From: Candidatus Methanophagaceae archaeon
Lineage (GTDB): Archaea > Halobacteriota > Syntropharchaeia > Alkanophagales > Methanospirareceae
DNA: 20,022 nucleotides
Reading direction: 5' to 3'
NCBI GenBank assembly: GCA_003194425.1
Contig: PQXB01000005.1
Coordinates: 1 to 20,022 of the forward strand
Below are positions 701 through 18,344 of this stretch, one piece after another. Under the pieces are notes generated by a model. It did not search any database. It saw only the letters and a program-made list of their open reading frames with translations, and had not been told where the DNA came from. The translations under genes and the position numbers were made by a program. The stretch's first letter is position 1, and every line of letters starts with the position of its first letter.

Positions 701-2152
701 ATGTTTGACCTTATGAAGAAGATGCTGCAGAGGGCGTTGAAGGAGAGTGAGTGCGAGCAGGCGGAGATTTACGGAGAGCGGGGTGATGTTTTGAGCGTCG
801 ATCTTGAGCGGTCGGAGGTGAAGAAGGTGAAGCACATAAAAAGCACGGGCGTTGGCGTGCGGGTAGTCGTTTCAAAAAAAATCGGGTTCTCTTACACCAC
901 CGCTCTCGACGAGGCGAGCGTCGAGAAATGCGTGGAACAGGCGGTAAAACAGGCGAGGGTCTCGGAGCAAGACCCTGATTTTCCTGGGCTGCCTGCTCCT
1001 GCTGCTGCCTCAAAACGAAAACGCAGCAACCGCTACACGAAGCCTGAAAAGACTTTTGACGCCAGAATTGTTGAACTGCTTGGTTCTGAAGGCGGGTGCG
1101 AGGACGCGATAAAATGCTGTAGAGAAATGCTGGCAGGGACGGAGGAGTGCGAGGTGAGCCGCGAGGTGAGACGCGGGGTGAAACGCGGGGTGAAACGCGG
1201 GGTGAAATGCAGCCCGACCGAGGGCAGTTTCGCAGCGGCTCACAGCGAGACTTTCGTCTTGAACTCCGAAGGTGTCGAAGCGAGCGACGCAGGGACTTTC
1301 GTCTCCGCTGGAATCGCAGTCGTTGCGAGCGAAAATAAAGGAGAAGAGACCTCGGGCTGGGAGAGCAAGGCAAGCAGGGCGCTCAGCGAGCTGGATTTCC
1401 AGTGGGTCGGCAGAGAGGCAGTGAAAATGGCAGTGGGCAGTCTGGGTGGCAAGCGACTAAAGACCGCCGAGATTCCCGTCGTCTTCTCGCCCCGCGCCCT
1501 TCAAAGCCTCTTCGCCTACACCCTAATTCCGCAACTCAACGCCGAGAACGTGCAGCGAAAACAGTCCCCCTACCACGACAAAAAAGGGGAGGTGGTCGGC
1601 TCTGAAATCCTCACAATCGTGGACGACGGCACGACTCCGTCGGGACTGAACAGCCGAAAAATGGACGGCGAGGGCGTCCCCTCTCAAGCCACAACTTTGG
1701 TCGAGAACGGAGTGCTGAAGAATTTCCTTTACGACTCTTACACCGCCGCCAAAGACGACACCGAGAGCACAGGCAACGCAACACGAGGCTTCGACAACCT
1801 ACCCAGCCCCGGAGCAACGAACTTCATTTTAAGCGGGGGCGGCGGAAGAGGAAGCCGAAGAGGAAGCCGAGCGTCTAAAGAAGAAATGCTCGGCGAAATT
1901 CGTGAGGGTCTTTTTGTTAGCGACTTAATCGGAGCACACACCGCCTCGCGAGCCTCTGGCGACTTCTCAGTCGTCGCACAGAACGCGTTCGGCGTTCGAA
2001 ATGGGGAGTTGTACCCAGTCGCACAGGTGATGCTCTCGGGCAACACGCAAGAGGTGTTAAGACGCGTGGAACTGTTTGGAACAGACACGAGGCAGATTTA
2101 CAACCTCGTCTCCCCCTCTGTCAAGGTCTCGAAGGTCCAGGTCGTGTCGTAA
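701..2152 (+). CDS. pmbA: PmbA/TldD-family (peptidase U62) protein
   Basis: This is ORF 659..2152, trimmed to ATG 701 (MFDLMKKMLQRAL...). Family-typical segments include GVGVRVV, GNATRG and HTASRASGDFS, and there is no HExxxH motif, which makes it PmbA-like. It contains two tandem-repeat insertions, at 1151..1210 and 1847..1870. Confidence 0.85.
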   Translation: MFDLMKKMLQRALKESECEQAEIYGERGDVLSVDLERSEVKKVKHIKSTGVGVRVVVSKKIGFSYTTALDEASVEKCVEQAVKQARVSEQDPDFPGLPAPAAASKRKRSNRYTKPEKTFDARIVELLGSEGGCEDAIKCCREMLAGTEECEVSREVRRGVKRGVKRGVKCSPTEGSFAAAHSETFVLNSEGVEASDAGTFVSAGIAVVASENKGEETSGWESKASRALSELDFQWVGREAVKMAVGSLGGKRLKTAEIPVVFSPRALQSLFAYTLIPQLNAENVQRKQSPYHDKKGEVVGSEILTIVDDGTTPSGLNSRKMDGEGVPSQATTLVENGVLKNFLYDSYTAAKDDTESTGNATRGFDNLPSPGATNFILSGGGGRGSRRGSRASKEEMLGEIREGLFVSDLIGAHTASRASGDFSVVAQNAFGVRNGELYPVAQVMLSGNTQEVLRRVELFGTDTRQIYNLVSPSVKVSKVQVVS

Positions 2153-2156
2153 GTTT

Positions 2157-2175
2157 GGAGGATCCTCCTTTTGTT
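2157..2175 (+). terminator. short palindrome ggaggatcctcc followed by TTTTGTT, possible pmbA terminator
   Basis: A perfect 12-nt palindrome begins 5 nt after the pmbA stop codon and is followed by a T-tract. Archaeal termination typically uses oligo-T. Confidence 0.35.
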
Positions 2176-2405
2176 GACGGCAAGAAACCTATTTAAATAA
2201 TCGTTGCCAACGTCGGCGGATCTGTCGCTGTCCCAGAGCCTCCTCGAACTCCCAACGAGTCACCTCCGCAAGGGCGGATGCTTTGCCTGAGAAAAACACG
2301 CCTCGCTAGATAAAGTGCCAACGCCAGTTCCTTTCGCAACTCCCTCCGCTTCCACCTCGCCAGGCGGTAGTCAGAGTGCAGCCACAACACCCCTGCCTAC
2401 TCTGC

Positions 2406-3422
2406 CTACTCTCTCTCACCTACTCCTCCTTCACCCAGCCCAGCACAACGAGCCAAACTCTCCGCCTGCGTGCGTGCCTTTGCAAGCAGACAGCCCACCG
2501 TCTCACGCTCGTACACACACGCATTTACCGAGAGGTTCAAGGCGTCCGAGTAAGCCTTCTGAAGCAGTGGTTTTATCGTCAACGCCGTCGGGTAAGCGAT
2601 TTCCAAAGCCAAAGCCTGCGATTTCACGCTCGCTTCTGCCAACAGACTGCCGACAGTGAAACGAGTGGGGTAGTCGTATTTTATATGCGTGGCGACCGAG
2701 AAAGCCGCTCTCGCTACCTCCTTCAAGTCCGCAAAATACTTCGTAGTGTCAATTTGAAGAACCTCGGGCGTGAACAAGACTTGAGACTCGCAGTCAAAGA
2801 CGGCACACAAGTCCAGCCCCTCTTTAACAGGATAAATTTCAAGCCTCGCCAACATCTCGGCAAGCCCAGGAGAGACACGCTCGCCCTCCGCAACCGCAAC
2901 CTTCCTCTTTTTTATCGTTACCTTTCCGCCCGAAATCCCCGCGGGAATGCCCAAGTTCTGCAACTCCCCTACAACCGGTCCGGGCTTGAGCGAAGTCGGA
3001 CCCTCCTCAATTGCAATCTCGTGAGGAGCGACCGCACCCGCCTTTATTGGCGCTGGTATTTTCCCCGCCTCCAACACTTTGAAGAGCTCAAAAGCGTCCA
3101 AATCAGTAAAAATCAAACCCGTTTGGTCTTCTACAAAATCCACCATTTCCTGCATTCCACTTCCAGTTCCACTTCCAGTTCCACTTCCAGTTCCCTTTTC
3201 AGTTCCGCTTCCACTCTCCCGCAGCGAAAGGGAAATAAGGCTGTTCTTCGAGACACGCAACCTCGCTTTCTCCCTGAACTCTTTTCTTATCCGTTGCAGT
3301 TGCTTCGCACCCAGTCCTCGTATCTTCACCACTCCGACGGTCTTGGAGGCTGCAATCGACTCTTTTATCTCCACGACCTGCCCCTTCTTCCACTCCTTCG
3401 CCCGCTTCACTCTCTTCTTCAT
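2406..3422 (-). CDS. rplP0: 50S ribosomal protein L10 / acidic ribosomal protein P0
   Basis: The 338-aa ORF is collinear with archaeal P0. Shared segments include WK..V.E, RVSKNSL, APIKAGAVAP, PGPVVGELQNLGIPA, and three spine helices ending LLAKARTQAESLA. It has a GSGT-repeat insertion at 3157..3216 and an unusually short C-terminal tail. Confidence 0.93.
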   Translation of the reverse strand: MKKRVKRAKEWKKGQVVEIKESIAASKTVGVVKIRGLGAKQLQRIRKEFREKARLRVSKNSLISLSLRESGSGTEKGTGSGTGSGTGSGMQEMVDFVEDQTGLIFTDLDAFELFKVLEAGKIPAPIKAGAVAPHEIAIEEGPTSLKPGPVVGELQNLGIPAGISGGKVTIKKRKVAVAEGERVSPGLAEMLARLEIYPVKEGLDLCAVFDCESQVLFTPEVLQIDTTKYFADLKEVARAAFSVATHIKYDYPTRFTVGSLLAEASVKSQALALEIAYPTALTIKPLLQKAYSDALNLSVNACVYERETVGCLLAKARTQAESLARCAGLGEGGVGERE

Positions 3423-3491
3423 CCTTCTCCTTCCTCTCTCCTTCTCTCCCTCTCCTTCCTTCCTTTCTTCCTCTCTCCTCTTTTCTTCTTC
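3423..3491 (-). repeat. uninterrupted 69-nt polypurine (GA-only on sense strand) tract immediately upstream of the P0 start codon
   Basis: Plus strand 3423..3491 contains only C and T by direct reading. Confidence 0.9.
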
Positions 3492-3500
3492 ACTTGCTTA

Positions 3501-3536
3501 ATTATCTCTTCATAAAAAATTATCTCTTCATAAAAA
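3501..3536. repeat. perfect tandem duplication, 2 x 18 bp (attatctcttcataaaaa)
   Basis: Direct reading shows that 3501..3518 equals 3519..3536. The element lies in the P0 upstream region and contains TATA-like TTTTTATG on the minus strand. Confidence 0.95.
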
Positions 3537-3554
3537 ACATTTATTGGTTTTAAA

Positions 3555-4409
3555 TCACAACTCAAAAAAAGGCATCCTCCTCATCCAGACGCTCACCGCT
3601 CTCCTCGCCTGTTCCGGGTTCGCGAAATTCTTTTCTACGCAGTCGTCTTCGGGATTTCCGATGAACGGGTTTAGTGTCCTCTTCTCCAGATCCGCCACCC
3701 AAATCATCGAAACCATTGCCTCTCCAATCTCCTGCCCCTGCTCCCTGAGGAACGAAATAAAAGGCGCCGGGGTCTTCTCTGTCGGAACAACGATTACTTT
3801 CTCTCCGTCTCCTCCCTCTCGCCCCTCTGCGTTCTCCTTCTGCATCTCCTCTACGAAATGCGGAACAAACTTAATCGAAGGAAAAACGAAAATTTGCATT
3901 TTTTCATTTTCATTTTCCTTTTCATTTTTGTTTTCATTTTTGTTTTTACTTTTCACCGCACTCATTTTTACGCACTTATTTTTACGCCCCTCGTTTTCAA
4001 TTTGGTACCCGCACCGCACCAAAACATCCCTCACCACGCCCTCCAAAGCACTTAGCGGGCTTCTCAGCCGTGCCCACCGCAGAAAAGCAGCCTCCAACTC
4101 TGCACTTAAGTAGCGGTGCGTCGGGAGGCAGTAAAAGACCTCGCCCTGATAATTTATCCGTGTGTGCAGGTCAGGCGAGAAGACCGAGAGCTTCTCGTCC
4201 CTCGTCGTTACGCTCTTGAAAATCGCTTCTTCCAAACCTTCGCCAACTCCAACCCGCCTCTCCAACGCTTCTCTTTCCGCCTCGCCGAGCGACGCTACAC
4301 ACTCCTTTATTTTCAACGCCAGTTCGCCCTCTGAAATTACTTTGCACTCCTGGCAACAGTCCGAGAGGTCGTTAAATATTTTTAACAATGTTTTTTTCAT
4401 CTTTTTCAT
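3555..4409 (-). CDS. hypothetical protein (about 284 aa), no family recognised
   Basis: This is ORF 3555..4460, trimmed to ATG 4409 (MKKMKKTLLKIF...) because the 4460 start is a TTG within A/T-rich sequence. Amino-acid composition is sensible, unlike the antisense ORF 3544..4113. It contains a KNKNENKNEKENENEK low-complexity insert at about 3899..3954. Confidence 0.7.
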   Translation of the reverse strand: MKKMKKTLLKIFNDLSDCCQECKVISEGELALKIKECVASLGEAEREALERRVGVGEGLEEAIFKSVTTRDEKLSVFSPDLHTRINYQGEVFYCLPTHRYLSAELEAAFLRWARLRSPLSALEGVVRDVLVRCGYQIENEGRKNKCVKMSAVKSKNKNENKNEKENENEKMQIFVFPSIKFVPHFVEEMQKENAEGREGGDGEKVIVVPTEKTPAPFISFLREQGQEIGEAMVSMIWVADLEKRTLNPFIGNPEDDCVEKNFANPEQARRAVSVWMRRMPFFEL

Positions 4410-4442
4410 TATAAAATAAAGATAAAAAAAAGGTGGAGAGAA

Positions 4443-5798
4443 ATGAAAGAAATAACCCAAAGAAAAGAAATAACCCGAAAATTCGCATTCGCAACCCGCG
4501 TTAAAAACATAGAAATCTCAGGCATTCGCAGGGCGTTTGAGGCTGCATCCGCTGCGTCCGGCTCTGCCGACTCCCCCTCCCCCGCTCGTACTCCCTCCCC
4601 CGCTCGCACTCCCTCCAGCACCCACTCCAGCACCCCAGCCCGCACCTTCAACCTCGGTCTCGGCGAGCCGGACTTCGAGACCCCGGAGCACATAAAAGAA
4701 GCGGCGGTGCAGGCTCTCAAGTCTGGCTTCACCTCCTACACCCCCAACAAAGGAATACCCGAACTGCGAGAGGCGTTGAGCGAGAAGTTCAAGCGTGAAA
4801 ACCACTTCTCGGTCAGCCCCGAGGAAATAATCGTCACCTCAGGAGCGAGCGAGGCGTTGCACCTCGCTCTTCTCGCAGCGGTGGAGAAGGGGGACGAGGT
4901 CTTGGTGCCGAACCCTGGTTTTGTCTCTTTCGCCCCACTAACAAGACTGGCGGAGGCGAAGCCGGTGGGAGTTCCGCTGAGCGAGGGCGAAGACAAAAAC
5001 GAAGGCTTCACGATGTCTGCAGAGGCGGTGAAGGAAAGAATTACGAGCAGAACGAAAGCACTCATTCTAAACTCCCCCGCAAACCCAACAGGTGCAGTAG
5101 AAAGCGAGGAGAACCTAAAAGCACTCGTTGAAATCGCCAACGACCACCGCCTGACCCTGATTTCAGACGAGGTTTACGAGCGTTTTATTTACGACGACGG
5201 CTTGACGCACACCAGCCCTGCGAGCCTCTCTGAGGTTGCTGGCGCTGGCTTTGACGAGAAAGGTAGAGGGGGGGTTGTCACTGTGAACGCGGTCTCAAAG
5301 ACCTACGCGATGACCGGTTTTCGGTTGGGCTACCTCACGGCGCGGGAGGAGTACGTGGAGCAAATGCTGAAAATCCACCAGTACATTCAGGCGTGTGCGT
5401 CCTCAATTTCGCAGCGAGCGGCGCTGGCTGCTCTCACGGGTCCTCAAGACTGCGTGGCTGCGATGAAGAGCGAGTTTAAACGCAGGCGGGACTTCGTTGT
5501 CGCTGCTCTTCGCGAAATGCAGCGGGCGGGGTTGGAATTGGAATTCTCTGTTCCGAGAGGGGCGTTCTACATTTTTCCGCGGGTGCGGGACGAAACAGAA
5601 TTCGTGACGGCGCTGCAGCGGCGGGGGGTAGTCGTAACGCCGGGATCTGCTTTTGGCAGTCGCGGGAAGGACCACGTGCGAATCTCCTACGCTGCGAGTC
5701 TTGAGGTTTTGAAGCGGGCGTTCGAGGTAATTCAAGACCAGCCTCTCCGCTTCGGCAGCGCCGACCGCCTCGACGACGGAGGGCGTGGTGCTTTGTAA
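4443..5798 (+). CDS. aspC: pyridoxal-phosphate-dependent class I aminotransferase (aspartate aminotransferase-like)
   Basis: Family motifs present are GLGEPDFETP, NSPANPTG and SKTYAMTGFRLGY (the PLP lysine). An SD-like GGTGGAG lies upstream of the ATG. The N-terminal SPARTP-type repeat insertion is at 4572..4646. Confidence 0.9.
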   Translation: MKEITQRKEITRKFAFATRVKNIEISGIRRAFEAASAASGSADSPSPARTPSPARTPSSTHSSTPARTFNLGLGEPDFETPEHIKEAAVQALKSGFTSYTPNKGIPELREALSEKFKRENHFSVSPEEIIVTSGASEALHLALLAAVEKGDEVLVPNPGFVSFAPLTRLAEAKPVGVPLSEGEDKNEGFTMSAEAVKERITSRTKALILNSPANPTGAVESEENLKALVEIANDHRLTLISDEVYERFIYDDGLTHTSPASLSEVAGAGFDEKGRGGVVTVNAVSKTYAMTGFRLGYLTAREEYVEQMLKIHQYIQACASSISQRAALAALTGPQDCVAAMKSEFKRRRDFVVAALREMQRAGLELEFSVPRGAFYIFPRVRDETEFVTALQRRGVVVTPGSAFGSRGKDHVRISYAASLEVLKRAFEVIQDQPLRFGSADRLDDGGRGAL

Positions 5799-6151
5799 GG
5801 GCGTCTCGTCTGCTTCCCGCACCGCAGACAGGTCGTCGTTAAGTTCTCGCCCTTGAGCCGAACTCGTGCATTTCTGCCAGGAATCAAGAACGCGTGGCAG
5901 TTCTTGCAGAACCTCATTTTTAAATGCCTTGGTATTCGCACGCGGTACCGCATCCCGATCTTACGGGCAAGTTGCACGTACCTCTCGCTTCGGTCTCGCC
6001 CTCCTTCGTCTCTCCCACTTCCCGCGGTCGTCTTCGTTGCTTCTGCCTCTGCCTCTGCTTCTGCTTCTGCCTCCGCCTCTACCTCTGCCAGCTCGAAGAG
6101 CCGATTTATCCGCTGCAACGCGAGTTCCCTAAACTTTCTCTTCCCCCGCAT
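5732..6151 (-). CDS. rnp4: RNase P protein component 4 (Rpp21/Rpr2 family)
   Basis: The protein reads RINRLFELA...RYVQLARKIGMRYRVRIPRHLKMRFCKNCHAFLIPGRNARVRL...TCLRCG, which includes a CxxC...CxxC zinc ribbon. The start is set at ATG 6151 (MRGKRKF...). An (EA)n insert lies at 6039..6089. Confidence 0.85.
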   Translation of the reverse strand: MRGKRKFRELALQRINRLFELAEVEAEAEAEAEAEAEATKTTAGSGRDEGGRDRSERYVQLARKIGMRYRVRIPRHLKMRFCKNCHAFLIPGRNARVRLKGENLTTTCLRCGKQTRRPYKAPRPPSSRRSALPKRRGWS

Positions 6152-6183
6152 TTCTAAAACAATAAATAAATGCAAGGTAAAAG

Positions 6184-9093
6184 ATGAAAAAAGAGGGTTT
6201 TCTGCTGGACATTGATTACAGAACCGAGAAAGTAGGAAGCGAAGGAAGTGGAGGAAGCGGAGGAAGCAGAGGAAGCAGAGGAGGAGGAAGCAGAGGAGGA
6301 GGGAAGGAGAAGCCTGTAGTAAGGCTGTGGTGCAAGAGTACGAGTGAGAGCGAAGAAGGTTCGGATTTTGTCGTGTTGGACAAGGACTTTGAGCCGTATT
6401 TTTACGCTTTTCCCTTTTCCTACGCTTCGCGTTCAGAGGAAGAAGGAGAGGCGGAACTGCGAGAGAAGAAGCGGTTGGTAGAGGGAATTTGCGTGGAGAG
6501 AAGGAGCAGCGAGGGGGCTGGGGAAGAGGTAAGAGTTAAGCGGGTGGAGTTTTGCAGGAAGAAGTTGCTTGGTCTCGAACGGCAGGGGCTAAAGATTTTC
6601 ACCGAGCTTCCGAGGCACGTTCCAGTGCTGCGTGAGGAAGTGCGGAGAGCGGGTCTCGCAGTCTTTGAGGCGGACATTCTCTTTCCAATTCGCTACTTAA
6701 TCGACAAGCAACTCAAGCCCTTCGACGGTGTAAAAGTGGTCGGCGAAGAAGCGGAGGGCGAAGAGGCGGTCTTGAACTACGCAAACACAGGAACAAGAAC
6801 GAGGACGAGAAAGAGGAAGAGAAAGAGAACGGCGATTCTGGCTTCAAAAGTGTGCTACAAAAAAATGGCGGTGGGCAACCTGCCGATAAAAATTCTCGCT
6901 TTCGACTCGGAAATGGCAACGCAGCCGGGCAGCGGGAGTGGAATGCCGTCGCCGAAAAAAGACCCGATAATTATTATTTCTGTGGCTTACCGCGAGGGAA
7001 GAGCGAGAGGAGGAGGAGCAGGCGAGGGAGGAGGAGCAGGCGAGGGAGAAGCGGGAGGAGGTGAGGGAGAAGCGGGAGGAGGTGAGAGAGGAGGAGAGGG
7101 AAAAGGAGGAGAAGAAAATGAAGTCAAGACGAAGTTGTTTGTGCTGGAGGAGGGAGAGTACGGACGAGGGGACGACGAGCGGGTAATTCGCGAATTTCTG
7201 GAGTTCGTGCAGGAGTTTCAGCCGGATGTGATCGTAGGCTACAATTCTGACGGGTTTGACTGGCAGTACTTGAAGGAGCGGGCGAAGTTGCACGGAATTC
7301 GCCTGAATGCGGGGGCAGACGGCAGCACGGTTCAATTTGAGCGGGGTGGGGCGTTGCCTGGGGTGAACATCGCGGGCAGGCTGAACGTCGACCTCTTCAA
7401 ACTCGCAAAGCGCGACCTGGACAGCGTGAAGGTGAAGAAGCTGGAGAATGTGGCGGAGTTTCTCGGCGTGCAGCGGAAGAGCGAGCGTGTGAATTTGACG
7501 CCACGCGAGATTAACGAGTGCTGGTTTGAGGGTTCGCGAGAGCGAAAGCGGAGAGAGCGGTTGTACGAGTACGCAAAGGCGGACGCGGTCAGCGCGCTGG
7601 GGATTGCGGAGAAGATGCTGCCGCTCCAAATCGAACTCTCCAGAATGGTCGGCTACCCGCTGGACGAGTTAGCAAAAATGGGCAGGGGCAGGCAGGTGGA
7701 AGCGTTCCTAACCGCAGAGGCGTTTAAGAAGGGCGAGCTGGTGCCGCCGAAGCGCGGGTCGGAGAAGACTTTTGAGGGAGGTTTCGTGCTTCCTCCCGAG
7801 AAGGGCTTGCACGAGAACGTCGTCGCCCTTGACTTCTCTTCGATGTACCCTACAATTATGATTTCATTCAACATCTCCCCTGACACTTTTGTAGAACCTG
7901 GGAGAGCGGAAGTAGTGAGGGAAGGAGCGGGAGTAGTCGGAGATTTTGTAGCCCAGGATTTGCACTTCGCGCCAGAAGTGGGGCACGCGTTCCGAAAGTC
8001 GCCTGACGGGTTCTTCAAAAGAATAATGACCGATTTGATTGCGCGGCGGCGGGCGATAAAATCGGCGATGCGGAAACACGACAAAAATTCCTCAGAATAC
8101 CAGCTCTTGAACCTACAGCAGCAGAGCATCAAAATCCTCACGAACAGTTTTTACGGCTACACAGGCTGGAATGCAGCGAAGTTTTACAAGCGAGAGTGCG
8201 CAGAGGCGACGACGGCGTGGGGTCGGCATTTTATAAAGCGTGCAGTGAAAATGGCGGAGGAAGAGGGCTTTAAAGTCGTTTACTCAGACACCGACAGTAT
8301 TTTTGCGAAACTACCGCCTGGAGTTACAGAGGTAGCAGAGGACAGAAAGGCGGCGGTCTTGAAGAAGGCGAGGGAGGTCTCGGAGCGGATTTCAGAGGAA
8401 CTTCCGCTTGAACTCGAGATTCAGGACTTCTTCAAAACGATTTTCTTTACAGGCAAGAAAAAGCGGTACGCAGCGCTCACTGACAAGGGCGAAATCGTGG
8501 TTCGCGGCTTGGAAGTGCGACGGGGCGACTGGTGCGAGCTGGCGAAGGAGGTGCAAACGAAAGTGATTGAACTTGTTTTACGAGAGAAAGACCCTGCTGC
8601 TGCTTTTAAATTCGTTAAAACCGTCGTGCAGGACTTGAAAGACGGGAAGACGCCCCTGGAGAAGCTGACAATTTACAAGACGCTCACTCGGAGAATAAGC
8701 AGCTACGAGACGAAGCAGGCGCACGTTGTAGCGGCGCAGAGGGCTTTAGACTCTGGTGTTGCCTACGAAGTCGGCTCAAAAATCCCTTATGTGATCTTGA
8801 AGGGCGCAGAAGGGGCGAGGGGCGCAGGGGGAGCAAGAGGCACAGGGGGAGCAAGGGGAGGGAGGGGCGCAGGGAAGGCGGAAAAGACGAGCGACCGTGC
8901 GTTTCCGGTAGATCTTGTAGAGAAAAGCGAAGGGAACGAAATAACCGCAGAGGGGCGGAAATACCAAATCGACACTTCTTACTACCTCCAGCACCAAATA
9001 ATTCCGGTTGCGCACAGGGTGCTGCAACTCTTCGGCTACGAGCTCTCCTCTTTTGAAAATCGCGGGCAGAAGACATTGGGGCAGTGGTTTTGA
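6184..9093 (+). CDS. polB: family B DNA polymerase
   Basis: Motifs present are Exo I FDSE, Exo II YNSDGFDWQYL, Exo III YAKADA, motif A DFSSMYPTIM, motif B KILTNSFYGY and motif C YSDTDS. Four low-complexity insertions lie at 6235..6312, 6787..6831, 6994..7122 and 8803..8886. Confidence 0.95.
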   Translation: MKKEGFLLDIDYRTEKVGSEGSGGSGGSRGSRGGGSRGGGKEKPVVRLWCKSTSESEEGSDFVVLDKDFEPYFYAFPFSYASRSEEEGEAELREKKRLVEGICVERRSSEGAGEEVRVKRVEFCRKKLLGLERQGLKIFTELPRHVPVLREEVRRAGLAVFEADILFPIRYLIDKQLKPFDGVKVVGEEAEGEEAVLNYANTGTRTRTRKRKRKRTAILASKVCYKKMAVGNLPIKILAFDSEMATQPGSGSGMPSPKKDPIIIISVAYREGRARGGGAGEGGGAGEGEAGGGEGEAGGGERGGEGKGGEENEVKTKLFVLEEGEYGRGDDERVIREFLEFVQEFQPDVIVGYNSDGFDWQYLKERAKLHGIRLNAGADGSTVQFERGGALPGVNIAGRLNVDLFKLAKRDLDSVKVKKLENVAEFLGVQRKSERVNLTPREINECWFEGSRERKRRERLYEYAKADAVSALGIAEKMLPLQIELSRMVGYPLDELAKMGRGRQVEAFLTAEAFKKGELVPPKRGSEKTFEGGFVLPPEKGLHENVVALDFSSMYPTIMISFNISPDTFVEPGRAEVVREGAGVVGDFVAQDLHFAPEVGHAFRKSPDGFFKRIMTDLIARRRAIKSAMRKHDKNSSEYQLLNLQQQSIKILTNSFYGYTGWNAAKFYKRECAEATTAWGRHFIKRAVKMAEEEGFKVVYSDTDSIFAKLPPGVTEVAEDRKAAVLKKAREVSERISEELPLELEIQDFFKTIFFTGKKKRYAALTDKGEIVVRGLEVRRGDWCELAKEVQTKVIELVLREKDPAAAFKFVKTVVQDLKDGKTPLEKLTIYKTLTRRISSYETKQAHVVAAQRALDSGVAYEVGSKIPYVILKGAEGARGAGGARGTGGARGGRGAGKAEKTSDRAFPVDLVEKSEGNEITAEGRKYQIDTSYYLQHQIIPVAHRVLQLFGYELSSFENRGQKTLGQWF

Positions 9094-9163
9094 GGCAGTT
9101 CTAGAGGTCAAATATCAAAAAAGCTTTTAAAGACCTGTTCCTTTCTTAATTGCGGTGATAAAA

Positions 9164-10156: not shown

Positions 10157-10161
10157 AAGAA

Positions 10162-10353
10162 TTACGAAGACGCCGAGCCTGAAATACCTGAAACTGTCCT
10201 CTGACGCGAACCTCCCTCTCTCCTTTCTCCCTCCTCTCTCTTTTCTCCCTCCTCTCTCCTTTCTCCCTCCTCTCTCTTTTCTCCCTCCTCTCTCTTTTCT
10301 CCCTCCTCTCTCCTTTCTACCTCCTCTCTCCTCTCCTCCGTTCCTTTTCTCAC
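10162..10353 (-). CDS. possible 63-aa EEGEKR-repeat protein; coding status uncertain
   Basis: The GTG start overlaps the upstream stop codon (GTGA). The body of the ORF is a GA-only 18-nt tandem repeat that cannot contain stop codons in any sense frame, so the existence of an ORF is weak evidence. Confidence 0.3.
   Translation of the reverse strand: MRKGTEERREEVERREEGEKREEGEKREEGERREEGEKREEGERREGGSRQRTVSGISGSASS
10211..10339 (-). repeat. about 7 tandem copies of an 18-nt unit (plus strand ctccctcctctctcYttt), GA-only on the minus strand
   Basis: Direct reading places unit boundaries at 10227, 10245, 10263, 10281, 10299 and 10317. Plus strand 10211..10318 is pyrimidine-only. Confidence 0.9.
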
Positions 10354-11628: not shown

Positions 11629-12249
11629 ATGGCGAAGGCGGTGTTGTTTTTGGCAGCGGGGTTTGAGGAGATTGAGGCTGCGAGCGTTGCGGATGTCTTG
11701 AGGAGAGGCGGTGTAGAAGTCGTGGTCGCGGGTCTGCAAGAGCAAGCAGGAGCAGGGGCAGGAGCAGGGGCAGGAGCAGGAGCAGGAACAGGAGCAGGAA
11801 CAGGAGCGGTTGAAGGCGGGCACGGGATTAAAGTGGTTCCAGACACGACGATTGGGGAGGTTGAGGTTGGGGATTTTGACGCGGTCGTGCTGCCGGGCGG
11901 GTACCCGGGCTACGAGAATCTTGGAAACGACAGGCGAGTCTTGGACGCGGTCAAGAGTGCGGTTGAGCAGGGAAAGGTCGTTGCTGCGATTTGCGGCGCC
12001 CCTACGGTCTTGGCAAAGGCAGGGGTTTTGAAGGGCAAGCGGGCGACGATTTTTCCTGGAATGGAGGCGTGGCTGACCGCGGCAGGGGCAGAGGTCCGTC
12101 CTCTGAGCGAGCGGGTCGTCGTTGACGGCAAGATTGTTACCAGTCAGGGTCCGTGGACGGCGTTGGAATTTGGGGTCAAGTTGGTGGAAATCCTGGTCGG
12201 GGCGAAGCGAGCGCGGGAACTCAAGGACGAACTCGTAGCGAACTTTTAG
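11629..12249 (+). CDS. DJ-1/PfpI family protein
   Basis: The sequence reads KAVLFLAAGFEEIEA...VVLPGG...VAAICGAPTVLAKAGVL...IVTSQGP, with the nucleophile-elbow Cys. A (GA/GT)n insertion lies at 11746..11808. Confidence 0.9.
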   Translation: MAKAVLFLAAGFEEIEAASVADVLRRGGVEVVVAGLQEQAGAGAGAGAGAGAGTGAGTGAVEGGHGIKVVPDTTIGEVEVGDFDAVVLPGGYPGYENLGNDRRVLDAVKSAVEQGKVVAAICGAPTVLAKAGVLKGKRATIFPGMEAWLTAAGAEVRPLSERVVVDGKIVTSQGPWTALEFGVKLVEILVGAKRARELKDELVANF

Positions 12250-12293
12250 AAGGAGAGGAAAAAGGAGAAAGAGGAGAAAGGAGAAAGAGAAAA

Positions 12294-12494
12294 ATGAGGA
12301 GGGAAATTTGGGTAGGTCTTGCGGTCTCCCTCGTTGGAGTGCTGGTTCTGTATGTTTTCAAGTACAACCTCTACCTTGGCGTGGGACTGCTGGGCGTTGG
12401 AGTGGTTATTTTAATAGTAACTATGAGTTTTGAGAGATATGAGGAGTGGAAGAAGATGAAGGAGGAGATAAGCGAGGAGGATTTGAGACCATGA
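12294..12494 (+). CDS. small membrane protein, 66 aa, two TM helices and an acidic C-terminus
   Basis: The sequence is MRREIWVGLAVSLVGVLVLYVFKYNLYLGVGLLGVGVVILIVTMSFERYEEWKKMKEEISEEDLRP. It is preceded by a GA-only tract at 12250..12294, and its stop overlaps the next start (ATGA). Confidence 0.6.
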   Translation: MRREIWVGLAVSLVGVLVLYVFKYNLYLGVGLLGVGVVILIVTMSFERYEEWKKMKEEISEEDLRP

Positions 12495-12811
12495 GCGTGA
12501 TAGTCGTGAATACGGATTTCGTTGTGGGAAAAGAGATTGTGGCGGTTTTGGGGGTCGTGAAGGGGAGTGTGATTCAGGCGAAGCACTTGGGGAAAGATTT
12601 TGTGGCAGGGCTTCGAACGATTATCGGGGGCGAGATAAAGGAGTACACCGAGATGATGAGCGAGGCGAGGGAGATTGCGTTGAAGAGGATGAGAGACAAG
12701 GCGGAGGAGATGGGTGCGGACGCGGTCGTGAACCTTCGGTTTATGACTTCGATGGTGATGACCGGTGCTGCGGAGATTCTTGCCTACGGGACTGCGGTGA
12801 AGTTAAGTTAA
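12491..12811 (+). CDS. ybjQ: YbjQ/UPF0145 family protein
   Basis: The sequence MSVIVVNTDFVVGKEI..GVVKGSVIQAKHLGKDFVAGLRTIIGGEIKEYTEMMSEAREIALKRM..KAEEMGADAVVNLRF is collinear with the YbjQ family. Confidence 0.9.
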   Translation: MSVIVVNTDFVVGKEIVAVLGVVKGSVIQAKHLGKDFVAGLRTIIGGEIKEYTEMMSEAREIALKRMRDKAEEMGADAVVNLRFMTSMVMTGAAEILAYGTAVKLS

Positions 12812-12822: not shown

Positions 12823-14556
12823 TTAAGTTGAGGTAAAATTGCCGTAACAGTTGACCCCTGCGAACCTCTCTCGGTAAGCTTTTAACAAGGGCGTCAGGCT
12901 TCGTTCCGGTGCTTTTGCTTTAACGCTTTTCAGCCGCTCTTCAATCTCGGCGTCGGTCAGACGGACGTTCAGCCGTCTGTTTGGAATGTCGATCTCAACG
13001 GTGTCGCCGTCTTGCACCGCTGCGATTGCACCTCCGTTGAACGCTTCCATTTCGATGTGGCCGACGCAGGGACCGGTGGTGGCGCCGGAGAATCTGCCGT
13101 CTGTGATTAGAGCCACGCGTTTGTAGCCTGCCCCGATTATCGCGTCGGTTGGCGTCAGCATTTCCGGCATTCCTGGCGCGCCCGCAGGTCCCTGGAACGG
13201 CAGCACGACCACGTCGCCCTCTGCAATTTTACCTAACTCAATCGCGTCCAGCAACGCCTTCTCGGTGTAGAAGACCTTGGCGGGACCGGAATGAACCATC
13301 ATTTCTCTGCCGACCGCGGTCTGCTTTACTACCGCGCTGTTCGCGATGTTTCCTCTTAGCACTGCGATTCCGCCCTCTGGGAAGTACGCGTTCTCGAGCG
13401 TTCGGACAACCTCGTCGTCCAGCACTCGCCCCTCCTCCGCCACCTTTTTTATTGTTTTTGGTTTTCCGTTTCCGTCTCCGTTTCCTTTTTCATCCCCCTC
13501 TCCGTCTCTGTTCACGGTCGGCGAGTCTTTTATTTTGTCTTTCAGGCGGTTGAGGACTGCGGGAACGCCACCTGCTCGGTCGAGGTCCGCCATTTCGTGC
13601 GTGCCCGAGGGGATGATTTTGCAGAGGTTCGGCGTCTCTCTCGAGATCTCGTCGAACATTTCTACCCCAATTTCAACGCCCGCTTCTCTGGCTACCGCGG
13701 GAATGTGCAGGACCGCGTTCGTCGAGCCGCCCATCGCCATATCCACTCTAATCGCGTTCTCAAAAGCGTTCTCGGTCATTATTTCCCGCGGCGTAACGCC
13801 CTCTCTAACCAGTTCAACAATTCTCCTCCCGGTTTCGTACGCCTGCTGCTTCTTCCGCGGGTCGGTCGCCAGCGTCGTCGCACAGCCGGTCAGCGACATT
13901 CCCAGCACCTCGGTAGCAACCGCCATCGTGTTCGCGGTGTAAAGCCCGACGCAAGAACCCGCACCGCAAGCCAAAAGCGGAAGCATCTTCTCCGCCTCTT
14001 CCGCTGTCATCGCACCGCTCTTGACCCTACCCACGATGCCAAAGCCTTCGATGGGGTGGTGCTTCTTTACTTCGCCCGCTCTTCCCCCCTCGACCTCCAC
14101 GACATTTGCCTTCATCGGTCCGCCGGTAAGAAGAATCGCCGGCAGGTTGAGCCGTCCCGCTGCCATCAGCATTCCTGGCGTAATTTTGTCGCAGTTCGTC
14201 ACCCCAACCCAGCCGTCCAAGGAGTGCGAGAGCGTCATTATTTCGATGTTGTCCGCGATGTGTTCCCTGCTCGGAAGCGACAGCCGCATCTCCACAAACA
14301 TCGCAACGCCGTCGCAGACGCCTGGCACGCCCCACTCCAAAGGAACTCCGCCCGCGTCTCTAACCCCTCTCTTCACTTCCTCGGTCAGTGCATTCAAGTG
14401 AATATGCCCTGGAATGATGTTGTTGTAGCTGTTAGCGACGCCGACGAACGGCTTGTCCCGCTCACGCTCAAAGTCCTCTGCTTTTAGCCCCGCCGAGATC
14501 AGCAGCGCCCTGTGCGGCAGTGTCTCGATTTGCTCCTTTAAGATGTCTGAACGCAT
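12823..14556 (-). CDS. ilvD: dihydroxy-acid dehydratase
   Basis: This 577-aa ORF carries IlvD/Edd hallmarks: PFVGVANSYN, TNCDKITPGMLMA, GGSTN, ALITDGRFSG and GHI. A low-complexity insertion, GEGDEKGNGDGNGKPK, lies at about 13459..13510. Confidence 0.95.
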   Translation of the reverse strand: MRSDILKEQIETLPHRALLISAGLKAEDFERERDKPFVGVANSYNNIIPGHIHLNALTEEVKRGVRDAGGVPLEWGVPGVCDGVAMFVEMRLSLPSREHIADNIEIMTLSHSLDGWVGVTNCDKITPGMLMAAGRLNLPAILLTGGPMKANVVEVEGGRAGEVKKHHPIEGFGIVGRVKSGAMTAEEAEKMLPLLACGAGSCVGLYTANTMAVATEVLGMSLTGCATTLATDPRKKQQAYETGRRIVELVREGVTPREIMTENAFENAIRVDMAMGGSTNAVLHIPAVAREAGVEIGVEMFDEISRETPNLCKIIPSGTHEMADLDRAGGVPAVLNRLKDKIKDSPTVNRDGEGDEKGNGDGNGKPKTIKKVAEEGRVLDDEVVRTLENAYFPEGGIAVLRGNIANSAVVKQTAVGREMMVHSGPAKVFYTEKALLDAIELGKIAEGDVVVLPFQGPAGAPGMPEMLTPTDAIIGAGYKRVALITDGRFSGATTGPCVGHIEMEAFNGGAIAAVQDGDTVEIDIPNRRLNVRLTDAEIEERLKSVKAKAPERSLTPLLKAYRERFAGVNCYGNFTST

Positions 14557-14612
14557 TTTTCTCTTCTCTCTCTAAAATAAGAATTAAAATAAAAATAAAA
14601 ATAAAAAAAGGA

Positions 14613-16288: not shown

Positions 16289-16297
16289 TTTTTTTGT

Positions 16298-16305
16298 TCA
16301 CCTCC
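16298..16305 (-). promoter_or_regulatory. Shine-Dalgarno GGAGGTGA, 9 nt upstream of ATG 16288
   Basis: Plus-strand tcacctcc is fully complementary to the conserved 16S rRNA 3' end motif. Confidence 0.6.
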
Positions 16306-16565
16306 TAATTTTTTTATGCTGGGAAAAGTGGAGTGTCTCCTGACTTGCCCTTCTCTTCGCCTTTTCTTCTTCGCGTTCTCGCCCCCTTCCTTCGTACTTC
16401 GGAAGCGAGAGGGTAAAGGGCACCGTTTCCTTTTTCACTACCTCTGCCCCGTTTCCCTCTTTCTCACACTTTCCCCTCGATCTTACTTTTCAAGTCAGAA
16501 GACATTAAATATCTTTTATAAATATAAAACAAAATAACCTTTTTCTCTTTTTCTTTTAGCACAGG

Positions 16566-18344
16566 TTACATTTCTTCCGGCGCCTCAACACCCAGCACCT
16601 CCAAAACCCGACTCAAGACAATCTTCGCACACTCCACGAGAACCAACCTCGCTTCTCTCACCTCCACCTTCTCTGCAGTCAAGACCGGACAGTCCTTGTA
16701 AAACAAATTAAAACTCTCGGCAAGTTCCCTCGCGTATTTAGCGACCAAATGCGGTCTCAACTCGGACGCCGCCGCCTCCACAACACTCTCAAACTTCGCC
16801 AACTTCTTCACCAACTCCTTCTCGCTCTCCTCGTGCAGCCACAGCCGAGAAGCCTCGCTGCCGCGCGCTGTTGCGGCAGCGGTCGCAGCCCTTAAAATGC
16901 TGCAGGCTCGTGCGTGCGAGTACTGAACGAACGGAGCGCCCTTCTTCTCGATGTCCAGAGCGTTCTCCAAGTCAAAAACAATGTGCTTCTCCGGCGAGAC
17001 CTTCACAATGTCGTACCGCAACGCCCCAACTCCGACCCTCCTCGCAATCTCACGCCTCTTCCCCTCGCTCAAATCCCGCCTCCTCTTAGACACCTCCTCG
17101 TACGCCCGCTCCTCAATCTTCTCAATCAACTCGTCCACCGAAATGTACCTGCCTGCACGCGTGGAGAGCGACCCGCTCGGCAGCGAAACGAACTCAAAAA
17201 GGACAAACTCCGGCAGCACCCGCACGCCCAAAATCTCCAACGCCTTCGCCAACTGCTGCGAGACCAACTCGTGGTCCTTCCCGAATACATCAATTATTCG
17301 ATCCACTCGGTCGCCCCGCTCGCTCTTCCACCTGTGGTAAGCGAGGTCTCGTGCGGTGTAGAGCGAAGTCCCGTCGCTCCGCTGCACCACCAACTCCTTC
17401 CCAATCCCCTCCAATTTCAGCAGAACCGCAGAACCCTCAAACCGAACCTCTCCCTTCCGCTTTAACTCTTCTAACACCTCCGCCACTGCCCCGCTCCTCA
17501 CAAACTCGCTTTCCCAAACGAAGAGGTCGTGCCGAATATTCAAACGCTCCAAAGACGCCCGAACTCCAGAAAGGCACTTCTCCACCACCGCCTTGTACCT
17601 CCGCACCACCTCCTCGTCCCCCACCTCGTACTTCCTCATCAACTCCCCTACTGACTTCTCCGCCTCTGTTTCTGCCTCCACTGTTTCTGCCTCCACTGTT
17701 TCTGCCGCCGCTTCCTTTTCCGCCTCAAGCAGCTTGTTTGCGGCGATGTAAACATCGGCAACCGCGTGGTCTGGTTTTTTGTCCGCGGCAACCTCTAACC
17801 TCTCCGCACCCCAGACCGCGACTCCAATTTGCCGCCCCATGTCATTCACGTAATACTGCGTCTCCACCGCGAACCCAGCACGCTTCAGCACCCGCACTAG
17901 CACATCGCCGATAATCGCGTTTCTGAGATGCCCGATGTGTAAGGGACCGTCAGCGTTCGCAGAAGTGTGCTCAATTATGATTTTCCCCCGCCTCTTCTCC
18001 GCCGCAGCAGGCTTCGCTCCTTCTTCGTCTTTTATCCTCTGCAAAGTCTTCTGCAAGAAGAAATCGTTCGCATAAAAATTGATGTAGGGACCGACAGCGA
18101 CGGCTTTTAATATTAATTTTGAATCCGCACTCGTCTCCGTCAATTCCAAGTGCCGCACAATTTCTTCCGCGACAACGGAGGGCGGCTGCTTGTGAGTGCG
18201 GGCTAACGAGAAGGCGACACGGGACGAAATGTCGGCGTGCTCGCTCTCCTCTAACTCCAACTCCTCGCCTGCCGCCGCGTACGAAGCTTTTTTCAACGCC
18301 TTGGTCAGCACTTTTTCCACTTCTTTTTTGAATTCACGAAACAT
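16566..18344 (-). CDS. argS: arginine--tRNA ligase
   Basis: The class I HIGH motif is present (GPLHIGHLRNAIIGD), along with the usual ArgRS N-terminal and anticodon-binding regions. The ORF-track start at 18395 is a TTG that lies inside a duplicated promoter element. I prefer ATG 18344 (MFREFKKEVEK...). An ETVEA repeat insertion lies at 17666..17710. Confidence 0.92.
   Translation of the reverse strand: MFREFKKEVEKVLTKALKKASYAAAGEELELEESEHADISSRVAFSLARTHKQPPSVVAEEIVRHLELTETSADSKLILKAVAVGPYINFYANDFFLQKTLQRIKDEEGAKPAAAEKRRGKIIIEHTSANADGPLHIGHLRNAIIGDVLVRVLKRAGFAVETQYYVNDMGRQIGVAVWGAERLEVAADKKPDHAVADVYIAANKLLEAEKEAAAETVEAETVEAETEAEKSVGELMRKYEVGDEEVVRRYKAVVEKCLSGVRASLERLNIRHDLFVWESEFVRSGAVAEVLEELKRKGEVRFEGSAVLLKLEGIGKELVVQRSDGTSLYTARDLAYHRWKSERGDRVDRIIDVFGKDHELVSQQLAKALEILGVRVLPEFVLFEFVSLPSGSLSTRAGRYISVDELIEKIEERAYEEVSKRRRDLSEGKRREIARRVGVGALRYDIVKVSPEKHIVFDLENALDIEKKGAPFVQYSHARACSILRAATAAATARGSEASRLWLHEESEKELVKKLAKFESVVEAAASELRPHLVAKYARELAESFNLFYKDCPVLTAEKVEVREARLVLVECAKIVLSRVLEVLGVEAPEEM

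Follow-up and report, generated by a model that had tools for sequence, protein, structure and literature searches.

The window analyzed here is a stretch of 20,022 nt that makes up one complete contig of a metagenome-assembled genome (MAG) of anaerobic methanotrophic archaea group 1 (ANME-1; Methanophagales) from the Guaymas Basin, in which conserved genes carry short, in-frame, mostly purine-rich tandem-repeat arrays whose inventory, variability, and origin are our subject. The gene identities were checked against Pfam, and the gene names given in an earlier reading made from the letters alone (hereafter the sequence-only reading) were upheld. From left to right, the window encodes a hypothetical protein (269-562, minus strand), PmbA/TldD (701-2152, plus), ribosomal protein P0 (2406-3422, minus), a DUF6834 protein (3555-4460, minus), a class I/II aminotransferase (4443-5798, plus), RNase P Rpr2 (Rpr2/Rpp21; 5732-6175, minus), a family-B DNA polymerase (PolB) of 969 amino acids (aa) (6184-9093, plus), a histone (9155-9364, plus), NMNAT (9450-9965, minus), a DUF8060 protein (9986-10353, minus), a DUF7490/PGF-CTERM protein (10350-11576, minus), DJ-1/PfpI (11629-12249, plus), YbjQ (12446-12811, plus), IlvD (12823-14556, minus), a beta-propeller repeat protein of 549 aa (14639-16288, minus), ArgRS (argS; 16566-18344, minus), and a PGF-CTERM surface protein (18535-19938, minus), while an Rfam scan and a tRNA scan of the window found nothing. 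The IlvD and NMNAT proteins are NCBI entries PXF50205 and PXF50201, respectively, and the latter has the same sequence as the NMNAT of 'ANME-1 cluster archaeon ex4572_4', which ranked first in abundance among the archaeal MAGs from hydrothermal sediments of the Guaymas Basin (PMC5569505). Since the contig carries single-copy core genes (PolB, P0, ArgRS, IlvD, RNase P Rpr2, NMNAT, and histone) in an order partly syntenic with other ANME-1 genomes, we regard the window as chromosomal DNA.

Arrays were called with Tandem Repeats Finder (TRF), overlapping calls were merged, and the units were translated; the coding arrays are given below in the orientation of their host genes. The pmbA gene carries two of them, at 1149..1207 (12 nt x4.9; EVSR/EVRR/GVKR) and 1845..1870 (12 nt x2.2; RGSR RGSR), and one each is found in the genes for P0 (3155..3213; 12 nt x4.9; GSGT/GTGS), the DUF6834 protein (3901..3953; 6/12-nt units; KN/EN), the aminotransferase (4575..4635; 18-nt SPARTP units plus 12-nt units), and Rpr2/Rpp21 (6038..6089; 6 nt x8.7; (EA)n). 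PolB has four inserts: the first at 6226..6302 in the first beta-hairpin (9/15-nt units; GSGGSR...), the second at 6796..6831 (6/12-nt units; RTRTRKRKRKR), the third at 6992..7112 between motifs ExoI and ExoII of the exonuclease domain (18/21-nt units; GGGAGEGE...), and the fourth at 8799..8874 in a thumb loop (9/18/27-nt units; GARGAGGARG...). The largest array lies at the 5' end of the DUF8060 gene (10210..10369; 18 nt x6.6-8; (EEGEKR)n; 98% purine on the sense strand), and the adjacent DUF7490/PGF-CTERM gene holds two (10868..10968; 30 nt x2.1; GESGRESEGE; and 11193..11233; 12 nt x3.4; GSWC). Further to the right follow those of DJ-1/PfpI (11745..11807; 6 nt x10.5; (GA/GT)n), IlvD (13463..13489; 6 nt x4.5; GNGDGNG; in the interdomain linker), which with a TRF score of 40 is the weakest call, ArgS (17666..17706; 15 nt x2.7; (AETVE)n), and the PGF-CTERM surface protein (18659..18723; 27 nt x2.4; PTPTPEVTT), the last of which is a Pro/Thr linker repeat of an ordinary type that belongs with the others only marginally. 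Additionally, a 21-nt segment of the hypothetical gene (282..302, minus), present as a single copy in the window, is tandemly duplicated in other strains, where the protein has 104 aa instead of 97. Two GA-only tracts lie in leaders, one abutting the P0 ATG at 3422 (3405..3499, minus; 100% purine on the sense strand) and the other preceding a 66-aa open reading frame (ORF) that starts at 12294 (12254..12298, plus).

These calls recovered every repeat listed in the sequence-only reading at essentially the same positions, including the four polB sites and both GA-only leader tracts, and added two arrays that it had missed, namely the largest one and the 27-nt array of the surface protein. Its description of the hosts as ten conserved housekeeping genes holds for all but the DUF6834 and DUF7490 genes, which are not housekeeping genes, and its statement that unit lengths are always multiples of three (3n) holds for all confident coding periods (6-30 nt), one doubtful 14-nt call of 2.2 copies excepted. 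The intergenic arrays have TRF periods of 25, 18, 16, 6, and 34 nt. Overall, the arrays are 26-160 nt long and imperfect (about 62-100% matches in the TRF rows), and they account for 7% of the window sequence and 6% of the residues that it encodes.

The abundance of these arrays greatly exceeds both chance and the level of related archaea. At a TRF score of at least 50, and leaving out the propeller-domain protein, whose 156-nt blades are ordinary domain repeats, we counted 16 arrays in coding sequences (CDS), against 0.20 +/- 0.44 expected (maximum 2) from 200 codon shuffles of the same genes. The density in the window, 12.0 arrays per 10 kb (24 TRF arrays in 20 kb), compares with 0.69 per 10 kb in a control set of 83 loci from related archaea obtained via PolB and ArgS (58 arrays in 838,576 bp), which are hence about 17-fold poorer in arrays; the density is 0.48 per 10 kb for those controls whose guanine-plus-cytosine (GC) fraction is at least 0.5. 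In a survey of 261 prokaryotes, most species had 0-3 satellites per Mb, by that survey's own definition of a satellite (PMC6749651). The view that such a density is unusual is therefore well founded, and the repeats are pervasive across the sequence sampled from this species, which amounts to about 30 kb of its genome: the window plus about 9 kb outside it (L002 1-5372; L100 780-4420; L-numbers denote contigs from other assemblies used for comparison). A second lineage, represented by L048 and L049, appeared at first count to share the trait, with 5-12 arrays per 10 kb on contigs below 6 kb, and was set aside, as these contigs hold only a few weak or out-of-frame repeats. No account of such repeats in ANME-1 turned up in the literature searched; within that literature the feature is undescribed for ANME-1, and it belongs to an already known kind, the in-frame coding variable-number tandem repeats (VNTRs).

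Comparison with homologs indicated that the inserts are specific to this lineage. The nearest PolB proteins outside the species (68-69% identity) have 830-865 aa against 969 aa in the window, and a segment of comparable length was found at PolB sites 1-4 in 0, 1, 0, and 1 of 34 aligned homologs, respectively, the single exception being P0077, which carries an unrelated insert of its own. Together, the four sites add about 105 residues to PolB. In an AlphaFold2 model built on the 34-homolog alignment, which is well folded with a mean predicted local distance difference test score (pLDDT) of 79, the inserts correspond to residues 19-38, 200-212, 274-311, and 877-898 and form coil between strands or helices with pLDDT below 50, and the residues of the Exo I-III and polymerase motifs are all kept in invariant alignment columns. 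Among solved structures, DJ-1 has 19 inserted residues after its second strand (compared with 4e08 and 5sy4), P0 about 9 (compared with P. furiosus P0, 4v6u), and Rpr2 about 21 between helices 1 and 2 (compared with 1x0t and 6k0a), while the aminotransferase has 30-35 extra residues before the first core strand relative to solved AspATs and IlvD about 16 in its interdomain linker relative to a solved homolog. The 16-residue insertion of ArgRS is clear against 11 relatives and not apparent against the distant P. horikoshii structure, which has a segment of similar length there, and PmbA site 2 is ambiguous in the same way, its distant solved homolog having a segment of similar length. Thus, the notion that the inserts sit where homologs are short stands for PolB, DJ-1, P0, Rpr2, the aminotransferase, and IlvD, and is not borne out for ArgS and PmbA site 2 when distant structures are the reference. 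Lineage specificity itself stands on the absence of the inserts from ANME-1 relatives (PolB, ArgS) and solved homologs, together with the scarcity of arrays in those relatives. The proposed mapping to surface loops is borne out in part, as the PolB model places the inserts in coil, and the low pLDDT of this coil combined with a disorder-promoting composition suggests, by proxy, that the inserts are probably disordered.

PolB also shows length variation of other kinds. A non-repetitive lineage-specific insertion of about 14 residues (AEVVREGAGVVGDF; window 7909-7953, residues 576-590) is lacking in 34 of 34 homologs, and model residues 583-589 within it are likewise of low confidence. The homologs P0077-P0079 (52% identity, 917-922 aa) carry an unrelated Gly/Lys/Arg-rich insert of about 23 residues in the thumb loop of insert 4, as well as an additional 27-residue insert, and this loop seems to be generally tolerant of insertions.

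We next considered variation within the species. The repeat-free NMNAT is encoded in identical form on 20 contigs of other assemblies, and further strain contigs were reached via IlvD and a small left-edge gene, whereas exact-sequence look-ups of pmbA, argS, and the propeller protein gave no matches. The same-species contigs are 97.3-100% identical to the window at the nucleotide level and derive from different samples and from MEGAHIT, SPAdes, JGI, Logan, and NCBI MAG assemblies; they were aligned to the window, and every indel was mapped. Array length differs from that of the window at 10 of 18 arrays in L001, 7 of 9 in L003, 7 of 11 in L004, and 7 of 11 in L005, by whole units each time, although the substitution divergence of these four contigs is 0.8-1.0%; by inference, a change in array length is of the order of a hundred times more frequent than a substitution at one site. 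Within genes, all indels fall inside arrays and add or remove whole units. They comprise a 12-nt deletion in pmbA array 1 and a 24-nt deletion in the P0 array (both in L001), 6- and 24-nt indels in the DUF6834 array (L096, L098, and L099), insertions of 6, 18, and 42 nt in the aminotransferase array, indels of 12, 18, and 42 nt in the Rpr2 array, indels of 3-63 nt at three of the four PolB insert sites, deletions of 6, 12, and 48 nt in the DJ-1 array, a 6-nt insertion in the IlvD array (L003 and L098), and the loss of one AETVE unit from the ArgS array (L017); the 30-nt array at 10868..10968 is constant in length among the strains compared. DJ-1 can drop 16 of its roughly 21 repeat residues, and PolB site 4 can drop all of them. 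The resulting proteins range among strains from 952 to 993 aa for PolB, 190 to 206 aa for DJ-1, 143 to 153 aa for Rpr2, and 592 to 612 aa for ArgRS, with IlvD at 577, 579, or 581 aa. New inserts are still appearing, as exemplified by an extra ArgRS insert of the EERREERREKKRR type on the N-terminal side of the HIGH motif, which is found in L016, L017, and L098 and absent from the window. Copy-number polymorphism, suggested earlier as a check, is therefore present among about 20 same-species assemblies, and with strains at 0.5-1.5% divergence differing by whole units at more than half of the arrays, expansion and contraction are evidently ongoing.

The indels also reveal how the reading frame is kept. 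Their length was a multiple of three in 44 of 44 cases in true CDS, against 0 of 10 in intergenic DNA (Fisher p=4e-11). This count takes into account that the DUF8060 differences of 17 and 53 nt become 18 and 54 after allowing for a base missing from the window, that the 1-nt changes at 4424 and 4432 precede the true DUF6834 start codon and hence fall outside the CDS, and that a 21-nt indel at 2410 lies just past the P0 stop codon. Intergenic arrays resize by 1-19 nt between strains, and the leader tract at 12254..12298 has insertions of 11 and 16 nt in other strains, neither a multiple of three; the duplication process itself is not confined to multiples of three. A gene with a PIN_12 domain left of window position 1 (L099-L105; e.g., L100 677-1319 and L103 605-1219) is informative here. 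It is intact at 204 aa in some strains; L100 carries a perfect 28-nt tandem duplication in it, a 1-nt insertion disrupts it in L099 and also in L101, and the gene calls of L102 divide it into two ORFs. The PIN gene is evidently dispensable, since the 1-nt insertion breaks it in two other strains, and we take the survival of a duplication that is not a multiple of three in this decaying gene, and nowhere else, as direct evidence for purifying selection behind the 3n rule. The earlier proposal of selection for frame preservation was upheld, whereas selection for frame alone proved too narrow, as the retained inserts also lie in loops, linkers, and termini and are devoid of hydrophobic residues.

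About 700 nt of the PIN cassette are 82-92% identical to a stretch in an unrelated Methanophagales MAG (L106; GC 0.43), which suggests horizontal transfer of a toxin-like cassette; L106, reached through this cassette, is a different organism with 1.5 arrays per 10 kb. AT-rich tandem duplications also occur in likely promoter regions, at 18376-18442 upstream of argS (34 nt x2), where L098 has an 8-nt deletion and a 1-nt insertion, and at 3500-3537 in the interval that separates the DUF6834 gene from the P0 leader (18 nt x2.1).

The strand bias of the arrays proved equally pronounced. The purine fraction (R) of the sense strand is 0.795 in the arrays against 0.583 in the remaining CDS, with a null maximum of 0.674 in 5000 resamplings. 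The sequence-only reading had described the sense strand as purine-rich in every case except the aminotransferase; this applies to 15 of the 17 coding arrays (R>0.65), with the PT-rich PGF-CTERM array (0.54) as a second exception beside the aminotransferase (0.21). Seven of the purine-rich arrays lie in plus-strand genes and eight in minus-strand genes, interleaved within 20 kb, and since the purine-rich strand flips with gene orientation over this distance, tracking the gene and not the replication strand, a replication-strand mutational bias is excluded as the cause of the orientation. T is nearly absent from the arrays, and G exceeds A in most of them. At the protein level, the arrays are enriched in Gly, Glu, Arg, Ser, and Thr and contain no Leu, Ile, Phe, Tyr, or Gln; Asp shows a 9-fold depletion alongside the enrichment of Glu, the latter making up 97% of Glu plus Asp inside arrays and 67% outside. 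Codon choice follows the same trend, with GGR at 91% of Gly codons in arrays against 51% outside, AGR at 79% against 44% for Arg, AGY at 86% against 40% for Ser, GCR at 94% against 72% for Ala, and GTR at 100% against 51% for Val. As synonymous codon choice shifts too, the purine bias is not simply selection for harmless residues and is largely a nucleotide-level property. The aminotransferase array is equally extreme in the reverse direction (64% C), and the property common to the arrays is hence a strong homopurine/homopyrimidine asymmetry. Genome purine loading would place most of the seeds on the sense strand, and the reverse orientation, which would encode Phe/Leu/Ser/Pro-rich peptides, would presumably be tolerated less often. 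No k-mer is common to the arrays beyond composition-matched shuffles, which indicates that they arose independently at each site.

Taken together, lineage specificity, strain dynamics, and frame selection each hold, in agreement with the core interpretation put forward in the sequence-only reading, and we consider it probable that the arrays result from a lineage-specific, elevated, and ongoing process in which G/A-rich tracts undergo tandem duplication and slippage, and selection retains those products that keep the frame and lie in tolerable loops. Under this explanation, an array would be born through duplication of a short segment that has 2-3 nt of microhomology on either side; as the strain comparison shows, arrays then grow and shrink by the gain and loss of whole units. 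Strand-asymmetric, G+A-rich homopurine/homopyrimidine tracts appear to be the preferred targets; in this purine-loaded genome such tracts lie mainly on the mRNA-like strand and in Shine-Dalgarno-like leaders. Selection removes frame-breaking products and, judging from the positions of the survivors, would probably also act against bulky or hydrophobic peptides in folded cores. The survivors are Gly/Glu/Arg/Ser/Thr/Ala-rich, probably disordered extensions of surface loops, linkers, and termini in enzymes that are otherwise intact, and the repeat peptides appear near-neutral in evolution. At the two simplest two-copy duplications, the microhomologies are AAA (the 21-nt duplication) and AT (the 28-nt duplication), which agrees with a model proposed in a preprint, according to which most tandem repeats are seeded by microhomology-mediated tandem duplication, a process that defects in Okazaki-fragment processing promote (10.64898/2026.02.28.708716). 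Candidate causes include a change in replication or repair, for example in the processing of Okazaki fragments, in the coupling of polymerase to PCNA, or in mismatch repair. In vitro, archaeal PolB and PolD slip on repeats, an effect that is suppressed by PCNA (PMC4134008). Misaligned or triplex intermediates that are stabler on G-richer tracts may contribute: GC is 0.55 here and 0.42-0.45 in 70%-identical relatives, a visible difference that accounts for the G-rich tracts of this genome.

Selection on the repeat peptide sequence was looked for in the single-nucleotide differences between adjacent units, 14 of which are synonymous and 30 non-synonymous (32% versus 26% expected without selection; p=0.39), and none was found among these 44 differences. 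Purine loading, or the density of polypurine tracts, was likewise rejected as a sufficient cause, the 70%-identical relatives having matching values in ArgS and no arrays.

Several observations weigh against the duplication-and-slippage explanation. The approximately 9 kb beyond the window have a lower density (about 5 arrays), and the neutrality test is based on just 44 differences. The molecular causes named above are candidates that may apply, and the translation of the inserts is deduced from frame conservation in the sequences. The arrays are imperfect and recur at identical positions in every strain as well as in relatives at 94-95% identity; they are therefore not all very young, and selection may help to maintain them. 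Equal purine loading is found in ArgS of the 70%-identical relatives (R 0.59-0.60; 11-14 polypurine runs per kb), which have no arrays. Finally, all four GA-only non-coding arrays (those of P0, the 66-aa ORF, the DUF8060 gene, and an FG-GAP gene of L002) abut start codons in the sense orientation, and peptide selection cannot account for this; since several other genes have short purine-rich Shine-Dalgarno-like stretches just before their starts, the leader arrays look like expanded ribosome-binding regions.

The strongest alternative is that the disordered Gly/Glu/Arg-rich loops are adaptive, serving solubility as an 'entropic bristle', thermoadaptive charge, interaction or condensate modules, or selectable variation, and are maintained by selection. 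Their imperfection, which shows that not all are newborn, and their persistence at fixed positions throughout the sampled strains and in relatives with 94-95% amino-acid identity fit this proposal, as do the enrichment of disorder-promoting residues, the total lack of L, I, F, Y, and Q, and the independent insert in the PolB thumb loop of another lineage (P0077), and a function was argued on similar grounds for Borg repeats (PMC9879509). We nevertheless judge it unlikely, given that the composition is set at the nucleotide level (the synonymous purine shift, and Asp down 9-fold while Glu is up), that unit differences match the neutral expectation, that copy number varies freely among near-identical strains up to the losses seen in DJ-1 and at PolB site 4, that the sites are scattered over unrelated enzymes with unrelated peptides, and that close relatives of the same lifestyle have no inserts. 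Accordingly, the suggestion of a functional role for the disordered loops, which the sequence-only reading had added to its main interpretation, found no support and is held here to be equally unlikely.

A function at the nucleic-acid level, in which the arrays act as extended or internal Shine-Dalgarno-like sites that tune initiation or pausing, or as extreme purine loading against RNA-RNA pairing, would explain the start-codon position and sense orientation of the four GA-only arrays and the nucleotide-level nature of the bias, and the arrays contain 26 GGAGG and 58 GAGG per kb. Polypurine mRNA tracts in thermophiles have also been proposed to be adaptive (Paz et al. 2004, as represented in the citing article PMC3308326). 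This density of Shine-Dalgarno-like motifs is nonetheless what the composition predicts, no k-mer rises above shuffles, equally purine-loaded relatives manage without arrays, the leader arrays shift by 11 to 16 nt among strains with no conservation of length, and one array is pyrimidine-rich on the sense strand, all of which make this function quite improbable and less credible than adaptive loops.

That the arrays stem from faulty assembly or binning, or that the contig is a non-chromosomal molecule such as a Borg-like element, is extremely improbable. Assemblies do break at arrays: L006 ends within the 10210 array (window 10244), L008 has 79 N at window 8850, PolB is called as a truncated protein of 650-656 aa in L007, L099, and L104, and the -1 frame error in the DUF8060 array of the window could be an assembly error. 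Against this, the same arrays recur with unit-wise differences in about 20 contigs from varied samples and assemblers, which excludes an assembly artifact for the repeats themselves and largely settles the artifact check raised earlier; the frame is always preserved, and the single-copy core genes and the ANME-1 synteny speak for a chromosome. Because arrays tend to cause breaks, gaps, and truncated gene calls in short-read assemblies, neither the gene lengths nor the completeness estimates given for this lineage are reliable at these positions.

ANME-1 genomes carry diversity-generating systems, and several arrays have GA-rich 10-mers in common, but an origin of the inserts as copies of one mobile or targeted element spread through the genome (such as a mini-insertion, intein remnant, or target of a diversity-generating retroelement, DGR), in place of local duplication, has next to no likelihood, as shared k-mers are no more frequent than in composition-matched shuffles, unit length (6 to 30 nt) and sequence differ at every site, strain variation is whole-unit gain and loss and not adenine-specific substitution, and the window proteins have no intein or endonuclease domains in Pfam. 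For the same reasons, inteins were rejected (the window PolB is without intein or homing-endonuclease Pfam domains, though some PolB homologs carry inteins), as were DGR variable regions, there being no reverse transcriptase domain within the window.

Going beyond the duplication-and-slippage explanation, one may suppose a heritable 'tandem-duplication mutator' state in this ANME-1 species that acts on G/A-rich homopurine tracts in the transcribed orientation and remodels the whole core proteome with disordered loops. We regard this extension as conceivable but would sooner bet against it, while placing it above the adaptive and nucleic-acid alternatives. Altered Fen1-dependent Okazaki-fragment maturation, altered polymerase-PCNA coupling, missing mismatch repair, or an effect of the inserts in PolB itself would be candidates for its basis. 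If true, it would provide a chromosomal counterpart of the Borg repeats and make repeat formation a property of the replication machinery of anaerobic methanotrophs, not of the elements.

Several further features of the locus were recorded alongside the arrays. The DUF8060 gene is a single ORF of 104, 116, or 122 aa in other strains (compare L001, L003, L010, and L098), whereas in the window a -1 frame error divides it between a repeat peptide of 63 aa (10162-10353) and a transmembrane part of 56 aa (9986-10156). Its 18-nt array is 1 nt short at the end, which is rebuilt from perfect units. Gene calls in L099 (GCA_029935835.1) show this split as well, and L006 agrees with the window at every base as far as 10244; either a true frameshift or a misassembly common to these contigs could be responsible. 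In archaeal P0 proteins, a long acidic stretch and a conserved hydrophobic tail of the GLGALFG type are normally found. The C-terminus of the window protein (2406-2480, minus) ends in ...ARCAGLGEGGVGERE, neither the acidic stretch nor a GLGALFG-type tail is present, and no alternative frame restores either, in the window or in L001; the 21-nt repeat unit directly after its stop codon varies in copy number. The aminotransferase (plus) and Rpr2 (minus) genes are convergent, with 3' ends that overlap by 67 nt (5732-5798), likewise in L001, and the overlap codes for the basic or Gly-rich C-terminal tails of both proteins. The interval between ilvD and argS differs by strain, encoding the 549-aa propeller-repeat protein in the window (14639-16288), an FG-GAP protein and a 700-aa protein in L002 (1358-5364), and a 618-aa protein in L098 (3606-5462), and looks like a strain-variable hotspot of surface proteins. 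To the left of the window, the walk along strain contigs ends at a repeat-rich gene of at least 1014 aa, where the contigs break.

The significance of these observations lies in the kind of protein affected. Prokaryotic core enzymes are normally almost free of repeat-derived inserts, and here PolB, ArgRS, P0, Rpr2, IlvD, DJ-1, and others carry them, with insert lengths that differ between strains that are about 99% identical. If the pattern is genome-wide, an abundant and environmentally important methane oxidizer would offer a natural experiment on the birth of disordered segments in ancient proteins, on the extent to which essential enzymes put up with loop insertions at 50-60 degrees C, and on the control of tandem-repeat instability in archaea. 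The locus also provides a chromosomal point of comparison for the puzzle of the Borg repeats. In practical terms, the arrays are hypervariable markers for typing ANME-1 strains, and caution is advisable with the short-read assemblies and gene calls of this lineage, which break at arrays.

Among known systems, the arrays correspond to in-frame coding VNTRs, as they consist of head-to-tail units within ORFs, with 3n periods, whole-unit differences between strains, and orthologs without the segment (PmbA site 2 being unclear). Purine loading is reportedly a trait of thermophiles, as described by Lao & Forsdyke in 2000, and the window shares with it a purine-rich sense strand (0.58 outside arrays) and polypurine runs of at least 8 nt at about 12 per kb in ArgS, runs that would supply both the seeds and the orientation of the arrays. 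Unlike the arrays, purine loading is a diffuse property common to array-free relatives, and alone it yields neither arrays nor copy-number polymorphism. Phase-variable contingency loci likewise have hypermutable repeats in or near genes, and the broken DUF8060 frame and the non-3n changes of the leaders recall them. In contrast to such loci, the arrays are not concentrated in surface or virulence genes, no reversible on/off pattern was seen in the strains compared, and because almost all changes are 3n, they alter protein length rather than switch genes off; phase variation was rejected on the grounds that coding indels are all 3n, with the DUF8060 array of the window strain as the sole exception.

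A eukaryotic parallel exists in Plasmodium falciparum, whose housekeeping proteins carry lineage-specific, hydrophilic, low-complexity loop inserts with a composition that mirrors the genome bias; their fast length polymorphism is ascribed to slippage, and whether they are neutral or functional has long been debated. The inserts described here resemble them in being repeat-derived, located in loops of conserved enzymes, and polymorphic in length. They differ in occurring in a prokaryote and in consisting of G+A-rich tracts that encode Gly/Glu/Arg-rich peptides, as examined over about 30 kb, whereas those of Plasmodium are Asn/Lys-rich, belong to an AT-rich genome, and are proteome-wide (for the polymorphism context, see PMC3140889).

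The Borg repeats (Schoelmerich et al. 2023, PMC9879509) are the nearest parallel described so far. They belong to extrachromosomal elements of Methanoperedens and are defined as perfect repeats with a minimum of 3 units and 50 nt, while Methanoperedens chromosomes are reported to be nearly free of tandem repeats (PMC9879509). Both systems show pervasive tandem repeats in the DNA of an anaerobic methanotroph, copy numbers that vary in populations, homologs without repeats, unit sequences unique to each site, and probable disordered regions rich in E, K, T, and P, often several per protein, and in both, units within ORFs are all 3n and intergenic ones often are not (here, 0 of 10 intergenic indels). 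Purines prevail on the coding strand in both and T is nearly absent; the bias of Borg repeats is toward A, whereas G exceeds A in most arrays here. The differences go further, since no array in the window satisfies the Borg definition (only three perfect arrays reach 3 units and 30 nt), which rules out a Borg-type repeat in the strict sense. Moreover, the arrays are chromosomal in an ANME-1 host and not part of a giant linear Methanoperedens element, and while Borg repeats are enriched in extracellular and membrane proteins, 8 of the 12 array-bearing genes here encode cytoplasmic proteins, comprising seven enzymes or ribosome/RNase P proteins and the uncharacterized DUF6834 protein.

With the coding satellites and simple sequence repeats of prokaryotes reported by Subirana & Messeguer 2019 (PMC6749651) and Lin & Kussell 2012 (PMC3315296), the arrays share 3n units that encode amino-acid repeats and act as indel hotspots differing among strains. 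Methanosarcina and Halobacteria are archaeal groups relatively rich in coding satellites, rich species having more than 4 satellites per Mb (PMC6749651). Such satellites lie mostly in surface and domain-repeat proteins, unlike the arrays of this locus, which affect PolB, ArgRS, IlvD, P0, and RNase P, and the window is an extreme case of the coding satellites known from a few prokaryotes.

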